Positions 24,001 through 27,979 of a stretch of 28,058 nt of DNA are shown one piece after another. Position numbers and translations under genes: made by a program. Numbering within the stretch: the stretch's first letter is position 1; every line of letters starts with the position of its first letter. This DNA is from a virus (Duplodnaviria; Caudoviricetes). Where the stretch lies: the IMG/VR virus record IMGVR_UViG_3300015360_000159, positions 1 to 28,058 of that record. One strand, given 5' to 3'. Under the pieces are notes generated by a model, which saw only the letters and a list, made by a program, of their open reading frames with translations, did not search any database and was not told the DNA's origin.

Positions 24001-25395
24001 TTAGCTAGGAACGAATCCGCGCGGTTGCTCGCCCGCCGCTGCTTCGAGCGCCAGGGCTAACGCCCATGCGCGGTCCGCGTGACCGTCCCGGGTGCGGGGC
24101 GCGTCGTAAGTGACGTTGTTCGAGCTGGTGACGATTCGCTGAATCGAGCAAACGTCGTTGCGAATAGCGAGCGCGATGCCGGGTGGTGGGTTTGATTGCT
24201 GAAGGCAGTGGTCTGCGGACGCTAGCTTGATGCCGCGTTCCGCGAAGGCTGTGTAGAGCCTGGTGGCAAGCTCGGCCTTTTTCTGCAGAGTGAACACAAC
24301 GGGGGAGACCCGATAGTGCCCGTGCTTTTTGCGCATTCGGTCGGCCGGGAACGTGCCCATGCCGGTCGCGTCAACCGCAAGCTTTGTGACACCCGACTTG
24401 AATGCCCGGTCGACCATGGCCTCGAGCTCGTCGGAGTCTGTGCGCCTTATCACCTCGACAGAGTGAGTCCAGCAGACTTTGCCGACCCGTCGCACCGTGT
24501 AGAGCACGCTCAGGTCGACTTCCTTGCCGATGTCCAGACCGCCGTAGAGGTTGCCTGCCCCGCTCGTGCCAAGGTCTTCGGCGAGCGAATCGGTGACTAG
24601 CTCGGTCGGGATGTATTGGAGAGCGCCATCGAGAAACGAGCACTCGTACAGCTGACTAAACACCCGCGGGTCGTTGAGCGCGTTGGTCCAAAGTTCGACC
24701 ATGTCGACGCGAAACCCATCATCGAGGGCGCGTTGTAGCGGAATCTCGTGGTGCTTCCAGCCGGAGCCAGCCTTGGCATCCGTGCACAGAAGGTGAAACT
24801 TGTTGCCGACTCCGTTGGGCGTCGAAGCTACGCGAGCTCGGAAGTTGCCGAGCGAAGTGGAGGGCATCGTTGCGTCCCAGACCTTATCCGGATGGTCGTG
24901 GTAAGCGAACTCATCAAGGAACAGGTTGCCAGCAAATCCTCGGCCGCCTGAGCTCGGAAGCGCCAACATGCGCCCGCCAGAAACGAAGTCCACAGCTCGT
25001 GCACTGTCTCTCCGATCCTTGGCGGCAAGGGAGCAGCCGAGCTCCTCAAGCACCCTGCGATGCGTGGCCGCCATCTCGAGCACTTCGCTCGACTCAAGCT
25101 GGCCTCTAGAAATGATCGTGGTGTGTTCGCCATGAAAGACTCCCCAGAGGAGCCCTACCGCGGCGGTTGAATGGCTGATGCCGATCTGACGGCTCTTGTT
25201 AACTACCGCCTTGCGGGCGGGCTCAAGAATCCATTCGAGCTGATAGGCGTAGAAGGTCGACAGCCAGGCGACGAGCGCGCTGTAGTCACGCGTCTTGCCC
25301 TGAGAGTTTAGCGCGTCCCGGTAGCGCTCAATCGTCGCTCGGTGCGGGATCAACCTGGACGGCAGCGTGCTGTCCAAAGGCTGCACGGATGGCAT
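24001..25395 (-). CDS. terL: Terminase large subunit (Mu gp28-like)
   Basis: Walker A 'NKSRQIGIS', Walker B 'LFLDEFAY', coupling motif 'STPNG', and nuclease motifs 'GLDIG', 'VDATGMG' and 'GHADRAWALALA'. Exact start uncertain. Confidence 0.95.
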   Translation of the reverse strand: MPSVQPLDSTLPSRLIPHRATIERYRDALNSQGKTRDYSALVAWLSTFYAYQLEWILEPARKAVVNKSRQIGISHSTAAVGLLWGVFHGEHTTIISRGQLESSEVLEMAATHRRVLEELGCSLAAKDRRDSARAVDFVSGGRMLALPSSGGRGFAGNLFLDEFAYHDHPDKVWDATMPSTSLGNFRARVASTPNGVGNKFHLLCTDAKAGSGWKHHEIPLQRALDDGFRVDMVELWTNALNDPRVFSQLYECSFLDGALQYIPTELVTDSLAEDLGTSGAGNLYGGLDIGKEVDLSVLYTVRRVGKVCWTHSVEVIRRTDSDELEAMVDRAFKSGVTKLAVDATGMGTFPADRMRKKHGHYRVSPVVFTLQKKAELATRLYTAFAERGIKLASADHCLQQSNPPPGIALAIRNDVCSIQRIVTSSNNVTYDAPRTRDGHADRAWALALALEAAAGEQPRGFVPS

Positions 25396-25762
25396 TAGCG
25401 GCTTGCTCCGGGGTTGCGTGGGTGATGGCCGTATCTATCTGCCCCGAGTGCTCGACCTGCTGCGTCGCCCCCCACTCTTTCTTGAAGCGTCGCTCAAGAA
25501 TCCAAGCGTGGGCCTTCCAATCGTTGGTGCCGGCCTTCGTGATGCTCGCCACGAGCTTGCGCGCGTAGTCGGCCTCCTCCTTGAGAAAGCGGTCAGCGAA
25601 GGCTGTATAGAATTCGTCGCCCTCTGATGCGCTGTGGAGCCAGCTTCGAAGCGTGGCCGATGTAATACCAACAGCCGCGCAAGCGTGCTCCCTAGGGGCG
25701 CCTAGCCGCATTGTCGCGAGGATAGATGCCTCAAGTTCAGGCGTTAGCTTTTTGCGGTTCAT
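25328..25762 (-). CDS. terS: Terminase small subunit
   Basis: 144 aa with an N-terminal HTH 'KLTPEL...ACAAVGITSATLRSW' and 'DWKAHAWILERRFKKEWG...VEHSG'. Directly upstream of TerL. Confidence 0.8.
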   Translation of the reverse strand: MNRKKLTPELEASILATMRLGAPREHACAAVGITSATLRSWLHSASEGDEFYTAFADRFLKEEADYARKLVASITKAGTNDWKAHAWILERRFKKEWGATQQVEHSGQIDTAITHATPEQAANAIRAAFGQHAAVQVDPAPSDD

Positions 25763-26415
25763 TGAGTCTCCGGGATCTCCTCGATAAGCCCAACGAAGTC
25801 ACCGAAGCGGAAGATTTCTTGAGCGTTCGGCAGCGAGGCCAGGGCTATCGGTCGCTGAACACCGATTAGGCTCATGTCCTTTTGATAAAGTTTTTCCGCG
25901 GTCGCGCCGGCTTGGATTTTCTTGAGTGCGCCAAAACGTGCGTTCGCGGTTCCCAGCTGCCCTCTGCTCGGCAGGGTTTTGTCGAAAACTATAATAGCCC
26001 CGCCCGGCCTAGCAAGAGTCCGAAGGCGTTGCAAAAGTGGCACGCGTGCCGATACCGGGATGAACATTAGGCTCAAAAACAGGATGGCTACATCGAATTG
26101 CGCGTATTCGAATCTCTGAGCGTCGGCGACTTCAAAGTCGCCATAGCCGCGAAAGTTGGCGAGCATCTCTGCGCTAGGGTCAATTGAGACCGCCCTAGCG
26201 TTCTGCGCCTCAAGCGTGCTCCGTAGCGCGCGTGTAATGTTTCCGGTTGACGCCCCAATGTCATAGACCAGTCCGCGTTCGGGAATGTAGTGAGCGGCAA
26301 TGTGCGAACAGAACTCGGTAGCGAGGTCATACCAGGGCAGCTGTTCGCGCACGTGCTCATCAAACCCGGCAGCGACCTCCGCGGTCTTGAACGTCCAATG
26401 CTGCGGGATCTTCAA
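25759..26415 (-). CDS. CmoA-like SAM-dependent protein (carboxy-S-adenosylmethionine synthase family)
   Basis: Collinear with CmoA as I recall it: WTF...VA..F..H....LPWY, 'VYDIGASTG', 'IDPSAEM', 'LSLMFI', 'PGGAIIVFDK', 'K...G.....I/L.QK..L..V'. Confidence 0.8.
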   Translation of the reverse strand: MKIPQHWTFKTAEVAAGFDEHVREQLPWYDLATEFCSHIAAHYIPERGLVYDIGASTGNITRALRSTLEAQNARAVSIDPSAEMLANFRGYGDFEVADAQRFEYAQFDVAILFLSLMFIPVSARVPLLQRLRTLARPGGAIIVFDKTLPSRGQLGTANARFGALKKIQAGATAEKLYQKDMSLIGVQRPIALASLPNAQEIFRFGDFVGLIEEIPETQ

Positions 26416-27440
26416 CGCAAGACCTCGTCGCGCAAGGTCTCAGCTACGGCCCGCATCATAAGCGGCGGCACGGCTCGGCCAAGTCGCTCGAATTGTTTTT
26501 CGTAACTGCCGAGCAGCACGAAATCGTCAGGGAATCCGCAGATTCGCTTAACCTCCGGGATCGTTGGCTTCCGATAAAGCTGACTGCCTTCAAGCCTGAT
26601 GCCGAAGTCTTTAGCGAGCGTCGTAATTGTCCCGCTTGGCGCGTTCGCGTTGATTAGGCACATATGGAAGCCCGTCAGGTTCCTCTGCCGCCAGCCGGGG
26701 ATTAGCTTATATGGCTCCTCCGGCGGCGGTAGACTCGCGAGCGCCTCGCCTACCGTATACTGATAAGGTCTAGGCTTCGGGTGTACCGGTTCGATGTTTA
26801 GATCGTTCCTGACCCCGACGAATATCGTGCGCTTCCGCGTTTGGGGCACCCCGAGCCACTGAGCCTCAAGAACCTTACAGGTTACGCGATAGCCGCAGCC
26901 TTTGAGGCGTTTAAGTATCTCAAAGAAGTAACCCTTAGCGGCGCCCTTTATCAAGCCAGCGACGTTCTCGGCTACAAATGCTCGGGGCTGAAGCCCTTCG
27001 AGAATTCGTGTGAATTCGAAAAACAGATCGTCAACGCGCTGCTCGGTCCCGGAATAGGCCTTGACCTTGCCCCAGCCGTCTTCCCGTATCTTTGATAGCG
27101 AAGAAAAGGCCGAGCAGGGCGGGGATCCGTCCAAAACGTCAAGCTCGCCAACCTTGAGCGATGTCGAGTTTAGAATGTCGTCCGCCGTGACCTCGCGCAC
27201 GTCGCGCGCGTCTAAAATTGTAGATGGGGAGCAGTTGGCTAAGTAGCAGGCCCGTGCTGCGGGGATAAACTCATTAGCCCACAAGACTTTGAACCCTGCC
27301 ATTCGGTAGCCGGTAGAGCTTCCTCCGCAGCCCGCGAACAGGCTGACGACCTTGCGCCCGTTCCAGGGCAGAGCAACGATCTCGGACATCAGAGGAACGC
27401 GGTATGGCTGCTTGGCTACGGCCCGGGCGGCCAACCTCAC
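26412..27440 (-). CDS. DNA cytosine-C5 methyltransferase homolog, candidate carboxymethyltransferase
   Basis: Motif I FAGCGG, IV GSPPC, VI ENV, VIII QTRKRTIFVG, IX EVKRICGFPD, and an atypical motif X GRAVPP. Confidence 0.93.
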   Translation of the reverse strand: MRLAARAVAKQPYRVPLMSEIVALPWNGRKVVSLFAGCGGSSTGYRMAGFKVLWANEFIPAARACYLANCSPSTILDARDVREVTADDILNSTSLKVGELDVLDGSPPCSAFSSLSKIREDGWGKVKAYSGTEQRVDDLFFEFTRILEGLQPRAFVAENVAGLIKGAAKGYFFEILKRLKGCGYRVTCKVLEAQWLGVPQTRKRTIFVGVRNDLNIEPVHPKPRPYQYTVGEALASLPPPEEPYKLIPGWRQRNLTGFHMCLINANAPSGTITTLAKDFGIRLEGSQLYRKPTIPEVKRICGFPDDFVLLGSYEKQFERLGRAVPPLMMRAVAETLRDEVLR

Positions 27441-27979
27441 TTGCTAGCGCTCCAGGCGTAGCCACACTTCGGGCAGGCGCAGTTGGTGGGCAAGTCCTCA
27501 TCTGCTTCTTTGAAATCATCCGGAGGCGTAGCGCTAGCGAAGTCTTCGCCGAGTTTGTCTAAGTCCTTCTGAGACCAGCCGGCCAGCTCGATGTCCTCAA
27601 AGCTAAAGGCGCTCATCACCTCCGCGAGAAGCTCCGAGTCCCACTCGGCTGCCTCGCCAACGCGATTATCCGCAAGCGCCATCAGGTGAGCCTCGGCGGG
27701 GTCAAGATCCATGTACCGCACGGGCACCTGGGTCAGCCCCAAGATCTGCGCAGCCTTCAAGCGGGTGTGGCCTGCGATGATCTCACCATCAGCCTTGCGG
27801 GCAATAATGGGAGAACCGAAGCCGAAGCGCTTAATCAGGGGTGCTAGCTTCTGGGCCGCAACGTCGTTTTTGCGAGGGTTGCTCGCCCAGACTTTTAGCT
27901 GGTCGACGTCAACCCAGACAGCTGCGACCTCTTCTGGCGCGCGTGTGTGCGATTTCGATAGCTTGGTATCAGCACCCAC
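27437..27979 (-). CDS. ParB/Srx N-terminal domain protein with C-terminal Zn-ribbon-like motif
   Basis: 'NPRKND...IKRFGFGSPII...IIAGHTRLKAA..LG...VPV...LADNRVGE.AEWD' and C-terminal CACPKCG. Confidence 0.88.
   Translation of the reverse strand: MGADTKLSKSHTRAPEEVAAVWVDVDQLKVWASNPRKNDVAAQKLAPLIKRFGFGSPIIARKADGEIIAGHTRLKAAQILGLTQVPVRYMDLDPAEAHLMALADNRVGEAAEWDSELLAEVMSAFSFEDIELAGWSQKDLDKLGEDFASATPPDDFKEADEDLPTNCACPKCGYAWSASK

Follow-up and report, generated by a model that had tools for sequence, protein, structure and literature searches.

A predicted ParB-CmoX-CmoA module for carboxymethylation of DNA cytosine ahead of the terminase genes of a tailed phage

Organization of the locus

The 28,058-base viral record IMGVR_UViG_3300015360_000159 (hereafter the window, meaning the whole stretch analysed) encodes, on the minus strand throughout, the head and contractile tail of a tailed phage. 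Four genes that overlap one another stand at its end and encode a ParB-like protein, a DNA cytosine-C5 transferase of the CmoX type, a CmoA-like protein and the small terminase subunit; the joints are GTGA, TTGA (26412-26415) and ATGA. We consider it probable that they include a coupled ParB-CmoX-CmoA module placed ahead of the terminase genes, in which CmoA would make carboxy-S-adenosylmethionine (Cx-SAM) and CmoX would use it to mark C5 of DNA cytosine, leaving free 5-carboxymethylcytosine (5cxmC). By sequence comparison the two enzymes are close relatives of a pair published in 2025, and the window likely holds a new member of that family, with no ligase in the available sequence and with a CmoA of another clade. 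The features are as follows.

27437..27979, minus strand: ParB-like protein, 180 amino acids (aa); PF02195, E 2e-7; phrog_620, E 2e-39; GTGA overlap with the transferase gene
26412..27440, minus strand: CmoX-type DNA cytosine-C5 transferase, 342 aa, predicted carboxymethyltransferase; PF00145, E 8e-50
27114..27125, minus strand: SPPC catalytic motif IV with the nucleophile Cys109, aligned with Cys98 of SpCmoX
26463..26480, minus strand: motif X, GRAVPP, with Arg322 (codon CGA, 26475-26477) replacing the usual Asn
27321-27338, 27114-27122, 26961-26969 and 26829-26843, minus strand: other transferase motifs FAGCGG, PPC, ENV and QTRKR, respectively
25759..26415, minus strand: CmoA-like protein, 218 aa, predicted Cx-SAM synthase of the Moraxella phage Mcat8-type clade; phrog_4752, E 5e-42
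25849..25881, minus strand: lid segment KDMSLIGVQRP of the CmoA-like protein, with Asp180 at the position of E. coli Arg199 and Arg188 at E. coli position 207
25328..25762, minus strand: terminase small subunit; phrog_4102, E 2e-25; ATGA overlap with cmoA
24001..25395, minus strand: terminase large subunit; PF03237 and PF17289
Downstream on the same strand: portal (phrog_145), major head (phrog_9953) and contractile-tail genes (Baseplate_J)

A first-pass annotation of this DNA had described the transferase and CmoA-like genes, and its coordinates, motifs, arginine codon and TTGA overlap were all found correct upon re-reading the sequence. All the transferase motifs sit in a single open frame of 342 aa. 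The ParB-like gene upstream and the small terminase gene downstream, both coupled by overlap, had not been mentioned. The earlier statement that neither a restriction endonuclease nor a CmoB-like enzyme is nearby was borne out: no restriction endonuclease was present among the 33 open reading frames (ORFs) of the window scanned with Pfam, and an E. coli CmoB query matched no ORF at E 0.1 in the window or in G001, a 45-kb contig that is 95-96% identical to the window, extends ~6 kb further upstream and ~10 kb further downstream and is ~60% complete. No cognate endonuclease of a type II restriction-modification system lies beside the transferase, the neighbours being ParB, CmoA and terminase genes, and a PADLOC analysis of G001 gave only helicase-domain matches, to a helicase upstream.

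The transferase carries the residues of CmoX

The first-pass annotation had suspected that natural phage examples of such a system exist, and one was indeed published in December 2025 for the Synechococcus phage S-B43 (Yang et al., Nat Commun 2025;17:281, PMC12783734; PDB 8YF3 is SpCmoX). According to the available text of that report, the phage CmoA converts S-adenosylmethionine (SAM) and prephenate to Cx-SAM, SpCmoA being a proven and fast synthase, and SpCmoX transfers the carboxymethyl group to C5 of cytosine at GC with Cx-SAM as its only cofactor. In the crystal structure, Arg350 of SpCmoX, which takes the place of HhaI Asn304, contacts the carboxymethyl group of Cx-SAM. The R350N variant is inactive with either cofactor, so that an Arg-to-Asn revertant of the window enzyme would be a loss-of-function control rather than a switch back to methylation. 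SpCmoX is active without ParB, both in vitro and in E. coli, and the host CmoA is able to supply it in E. coli. A third enzyme, CmoY, is an asparagine-synthetase-like ligase that adds glycine to the mark; S-B43 virions held the glycine amide only and no free 5-carboxymethyl-2'-deoxycytidine (5cxmdC). A total of 5,615 CmoX candidates were collected there by the SPPC motif and an arginine equivalent to R350, with CmoA (4,257), the ligase (2,251) and ParB (1,660) counted among their neighbours (PMC12783734).

The window transferase matches SpCmoX above any other PDB sequence (8yf3, E 7e-67, compared to 9e-28 for M.HaeIII), with 39% identity over 360 BLAST columns in a pairwise comparison (E 3e-77). 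Residues F35, E57, F58, D80, S106-P107-P108-C109 and R322 align with F25, E47, F48, D69, S95-C98 and R350 of SpCmoX, and motif X, GRAVPP, aligns with GRMVPP of 8yf3 and with GNAVP of M.HaeIII. Arg322 thus occupies the motif X Asn position, as had been proposed, and is by alignment the equivalent of SpCmoX R350 and of HhaI Asn304. The window enzyme has both SPPC and the arginine by which Yang et al. defined CmoX. The earlier proposal that the phage makes its own Cx-SAM, uses it through the motif X arginine and writes 5cxmC on its DNA is supported in that it matches the S-B43 CmoA-CmoX pathway.

The two contig names and Mcat8 gave no match in the source data of PMC12783734 through sheet Fig6e; the candidate lists of its Fig. 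8 may already contain this phage or its clade. Literature searches, with most subscription papers outside their scope, found no further paper on natural CmoX systems.

The motif X arginine and CmoA occur together among relatives

A scan of viral contigs with the transferase gave 116 relatives, from which the best 80 were taken and two near-identical copies of this phage were left out, resulting in 78 loci. Motif X had Arg in 75, Asn in two and Cys in one. CmoA was encoded in the fetched stretch of 70 of the 75 Arg-type loci versus none of the three non-Arg loci; upon clustering at 90% identity it accompanied 55 of 59 Arg-type versus none of three non-Arg clusters (Fisher p = 9e-4, for kin that are not independent). 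The raw cluster tally scored one CmoA-bearing row as non-Arg; this is most likely L020, in which the gene is split into two ORFs and GRAVPP lies in the second. The reverse comparison started from the CmoA clade of the window in bacterial genomes (GTDB; best 80 of 94 relatives), where 27 of the 28 C5 transferases found beside CmoA carry Arg and the 28th is in pieces. The association between GR-motif methyltransferases and CmoA genes, suggested earlier as a check, is therefore seen in both directions. A ParB-like ORF was present in 69 of the 78 viral loci and a CmoY-like gene in 26. A terminase count of 13/78 was obtained with five query proteins only, is an underestimate and was not used as evidence.

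The gene order of the window recurs in many prophage loci and in Moraxella phage Mcat8 (KR093632, annotated as hypothetical proteins), where a small ORF taken as ParB-like is followed by an Arg-type C5 transferase, a CmoA of the same clade, a small gene, terminase and portal. The identity between Mcat8 and the window is only 48-49%, and no experiments on the Mcat8 locus were found in the literature searches.

In three close CmoX relatives (L025, L085 and L078) motif X carries Asn or Cys and CmoA is absent; they resemble separate natural reversions, even though the single change R350N inactivated SpCmoX. In L025 and L078 Ala also replaces the Glu that lies four residues ahead of the motif X position. 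A quick tree of 61 methyltransferases, used solely to see whether the non-Arg forms are scattered, left many forks open and put the window enzyme on a long branch; in it the three forms sit apart from one another within the Arg clade. This weakly suggests repeated loss of Arg and CmoA together.

Other arrangements were seen among relatives. As candidates for another modifying enzyme, the ORFs tested between cmoX and cmoA either had no Pfam family or were HNH homing nucleases and were rejected. At L042:4818-7400 a single ORF is matched by the profiles of both CmoX and CmoY and looks like a fusion of transferase and ligase. In a SPbeta-like Staphylococcus phage (KT429160, L004:4989-6688), cmoA adjoins a C5 methyltransferase with GSPC at motif IV and GGVI at motif X, which is 26% identical to the window enzyme and would fail the SPPC and Arg filter; it may represent a separate Cx-SAM-using lineage.

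The CmoA-like protein has the CmoA fold

The CmoA-like protein is headed in its PDB sequence matches by E. coli CmoA (4gek), the profile match to E. coli CmoA having a probability of 99.5%, and it is 49% identical to its Mcat8 homologue. Its top NCBIfam match is TIGR00740. A search at E up to 0.001 gave 2,202 relatives, and an AlphaFold model built from 120 of them had a predicted local distance difference test score (pLDDT) of 89.7. Compared with known structures, the model fitted 4gek best (TM 0.86, Z 25.7, root-mean-square deviation (rmsd) 2.2 over 210 residues); the E. coli and Haemophilus CmoA structures 4gek, 4iwn and 1im8 ranked first with Z 25.0-25.7. The protein thus has a CmoA fold with lid helices. 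The equivalents of E. coli Y39, D62, G64, S66, D89, D117 and F137 are kept, and Asp stands at E164.

Weighing of the assignment and nature of the final mark

Several observations weigh against the assignment of the locus to Cx-SAM synthesis and cytosine carboxymethylation. Firstly, for the CmoA-like protein, the TIGR00740 score of 46.5 bits is far under the cut-off of 193.3 for the bacterial CmoA equivalog, identity to SpCmoA is 19%, the non-CmoA methyltransferases CysG and BelI follow closely in the fold comparison (Z 23.2-23.5), and E. coli Asn132 and Arg199 are replaced by Phe and Asp (Asp180). Secondly, the sequence fetched for five Arg-type loci holds no CmoA. One of these encodes it immediately past the flank, another lacks it over a contig of 62 kb, and a third is cut off by the end of the contig; the non-Arg controls are three only, all on incomplete contigs (8-39% complete). 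Thirdly, between its motifs VIII and IX, in the target-recognition region, the transferase is unlike SpCmoX, so the GC specificity cannot be carried over. Lastly, G001 being ~60% complete, a ligase may lie elsewhere in the genome.

This last point bears on the final mark. No match to PF00733 was present in the window, in G001 or in G002, whereas S-B43 and phage TurkishDelight do match; a three-sequence CmoY profile found nothing in the window or G001, and the complete Mcat8 genome, with its same gene order, has no PF00733 match. Since no ligase is present in these sequences, free 5cxmC is the likely final mark of the module. It is unlikely that 5cxmC is an intermediate only and that the missing part of the genome encodes a further enzyme, an amide ligase or another, that modifies it. 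Such a route would be that of S-B43, whose virions lacked free 5cxmdC, and it would agree with the CmoY-like gene in a third of the close relatives' loci and with the window being a 28-kb fragment. However, in S-B43, TurkishDelight and PaBG the ligase gene lies beside or between cmoX and cmoA, and here the ParB, cmoX, cmoA and small terminase genes overlap and leave no room; furthermore, the ligases counted in PMC12783734 were less than half as numerous as the CmoX candidates.

Arg199 binds the Cx-SAM carboxylate in E. coli CmoA and is called conserved in the CmoA family in the accessible part of that report (PMC3663124). Its replacement is the least secure point in the assignment of the CmoA-like protein. 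In the clade alignment of the window protein, position 199 is Glu in 118 of 120 rows, with Asp in the window protein itself, and K179, Q187 and R188 are invariant in 120/120 sequences. In SpCmoA, positions 199, 132 and 203 are Glu, Leu and Arg, respectively. When 234 CmoA rows were aligned, 233 of them with Lys198 in register, exactly one Arg was found among positions 199, 203 and 207 in 224 rows, none in eight and two in one; the 224 rows amount to about three clades and not to independent events, and they and the eight rows without such an Arg belong with the points of caution above. Depending on its clade, a phage CmoA accordingly has its lid arginine at the position of E. coli residue 199, 203 or 207. 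The shift is likely a compensatory move, and by its alignment Arg188, eight residues after the Arg199 position, probably stands in for Arg199. Loss of Arg199 was considered as a disqualifying feature and rejected; as the proven synthase SpCmoA also lacks it, the low TIGR00740 score and the missing Arg199 lower only the membership of the bacterial equivalog. In 18 viral loci, moreover, window-type CmoA has a CmoY-like ligase for a neighbour, and because such ligases need a carboxyl group, this softens the loss of Arg199.

We regard it as quite improbable that the CmoA-like protein makes another SAM derivative or is an ordinary methyltransferase (e.g. one esterifying a carboxyl), with CmoX using host Cx-SAM or that other cofactor. 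The replaced lid and Asn132 residues, the nearly equal fit of CysG and BelI to the model, and the ability of host CmoA to feed CmoX in E. coli would be in keeping with it. These residues are, however, also replaced in SpCmoA, and Arg199-type and Arg207-type CmoA proteins interchange beside closely related CmoX, with or without a ligase. The gene for 3-deoxy-D-arabino-heptulosonate 7-phosphate (DAHP) synthase, at the head of the prephenate pathway, that follows a CmoA homologue of another clade in Aeromonas phage HJ05 (see below) also speaks for Cx-SAM synthesis.

That the transferase is an ordinary orphan 5-methylcytosine methyltransferase beside an unrelated gene is extremely improbable: all family libraries call it a C5 methylase and ParB-methyltransferase-terminase loci are common in phages (as described in the accessible part of PMC4738411), but no CmoX model was among the library matches, wild-type SpCmoX does not accept SAM (PMC12783734), and the arginine and CmoA co-occur in both search directions.

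Two occurrences of window-type CmoA were seen with neither transferase nearby: at L151:754-8244 (Polynucleobacter) among unrelated genes that do not look like phage genes, and at L092:4926-5657 alone in a phage-like region.

Proposed pathway and comparison with known systems

In the pathway that we favour, the ParB-CmoX-CmoA module would be expressed late together with the packaging genes, as the overlaps suggest. CmoA would take SAM and prephenate from the host and produce Cx-SAM, with Arg188 replacing Arg199, and CmoX would carboxymethylate C5 of cytosines in progeny DNA through the usual cysteine-adduct route, so that the DNA would be marked ahead of packaging. The mark would likely serve to protect the DNA from host restriction enzymes; for that of SpCmoX, a block of HhaI only was reported, and the terms 'type IV' and 'McrBC' do not occur in the main text or the supplements searched of PMC12783734. 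Evasion of 5-methylcytosine-dependent nucleases, put forward in the first-pass annotation, is a conjecture. The ParB-like protein may be an accessory or activator, a role made plausible by analogy with the ParB-terminase methyltransferase loci and with ParB-activated thymine dioxygenases. The chemistry, namely the attack of Cys at C6, binding of the Cx-SAM carboxylate by Arg, exclusive use of Cx-SAM and the HhaI block, was demonstrated for the S-B43 homologues only.

The window shares with the S-B43 system the C5-methyltransferase fold, SPPC, the motif X arginine, all numbered cofactor contacts, an adjacent CmoA homologue and the lack of CmoB. It differs from it by the lack of CmoY in the available sequence, by a CmoA of another clade, with the lid arginine at 207 and not at 203, and by its position, as the module heads the packaging genes whereas the S-B43 genes sit among replication genes. 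The CmoA fold and most SAM-binding residues are also common to the E. coli CmoA-CmoB pathway for uridine 5-oxyacetic acid (cmo5U) in tRNA (4GEK, 4IWN; as covered in the accessible part of PMC3663124); in contrast, the window lacks Arg199, Asn132 and CmoB, and the predicted acceptor is DNA cytosine rather than tRNA hydroxyuridine. In M.MpeI N374K a basic residue in place of the motif X Asn likewise gives use of Cx-SAM, a parallel drawn in PMC12783734, but that enzyme is engineered, CG-specific and carries Lys rather than Arg. Phage thymine dioxygenases that depend on ParB (PMC13229309, in the part available) also pair a small ParB-like protein that has no evident DNA-binding domain with a post-replicative DNA-modifying enzyme, often near terminases; they belong to another enzyme class, and since SpCmoX works without ParB, a ParB requirement in the window is only possible.

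The window module is one more member of a family that counts 5,615 published candidates. In its compact form of two genes it may equip DNA with a free carboxyl handle, possibly at a target that is neither GC nor CG, and such a handle could serve DNA labelling and methylation mapping. Free 5cxmC as the final virion mark, if true, is not yet measured in a native phage. The CmoA-like protein also offers a test case for whether a CmoA without Arg199 still makes Cx-SAM.

A sister module with another transferase

The larger question comes from relatives, outside the window, in which the same CmoA clade is paired with a different transferase. Among the 80 GTDB loci described above, 28 had a C5 transferase, 46 a phrog_5475 protein (one partial), six neither and none both; CmoB was found in none of them. 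The phrog_5475 protein (~505-530 aa; examples are L094:2993-4585, L129:3484-5004 and L163:2447-3967) combines a pair of ParB-like domains with a class I methyltransferase domain, and its gene occupies the slot between ParB and CmoA. In viral loci of phrog_5475 (best 80 of 315), CmoA was present in 78 and a small phosphatase-like gene in 73, with CmoY and CmoB in none; five of these 80 loci had a C5 methyltransferase elsewhere, and the three examined had the ordinary Asn. No phrog_5475 gene was found in the window or in G001.

Fold comparison pointed to no substrate for phrog_5475. Its model has a generic class I methyltransferase fold, the best match being METTL6 (Z 13.4, rmsd 3.4, 191 residues aligned), whose lead over the following matches is under 1 Z; no DNA amino-methyltransferase was among the listed fold matches, though one is not thereby excluded. 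Yang et al. found no candidate N6 or N4 carboxymethyltransferase with phage CmoA, as stated in the available text of PMC12783734, and the literature search found no paper on an N6/N4-type enzyme of this kind. We consider phrog_5475 a candidate second class of carboxymethyltransferase. Tentatively, and with rather less confidence than for the ParB-CmoX-CmoA module itself, the CmoA clade lacking Arg199 can be seen as a working synthase with a relocated arginine that packaging operons carry at their head as an exchangeable source of cofactor: with CmoX it would leave free, negatively charged 5cxmC in the virion, and elsewhere it may feed phrog_5475, which would carboxymethylate another DNA position (e.g. 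an amino or ring nitrogen).

Cultured phages carry phrog_5475 beside a CmoA homologue of other clades, namely Gordonia phage Evaa (L172:702-2237), Pseudomonas phage SM1 (L173:5311-6867) and Aeromonas phage HJ05 (L174:1032-2624), and allow direct analysis of their DNA. In HJ05, the DAHP synthase gene (PF00793, L174:6257-7420) lies three genes downstream of the CmoA homologue and may raise the supply of prephenate. Escherichia phage vB_EcoM-613R2 (L175:1269-2642) has a distant phrog_5475-like transferase and no CmoA neighbour, and its host species has its own CmoA; this transferase could use host Cx-SAM or be a simple methyltransferase.

Sequence composition and upstream genes

Word bias was tried as a guide to the target motif and named none: GC and CG are over-represented, and the most depleted 4-mers in G001 are GATC, GGCC and TGCA. 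The depletion fits general restriction avoidance. In the window as in G001, GATC is the most under-represented 4-mer (z about -6 to -7) and GGCC comes next, which is consistent with avoidance of host restriction sites. Upstream of the window, G001 encodes a DEAD-type helicase (L089:3334-4782) with a C-terminal run of short repeats rich in Ala, Tyr, Ser and Pro.

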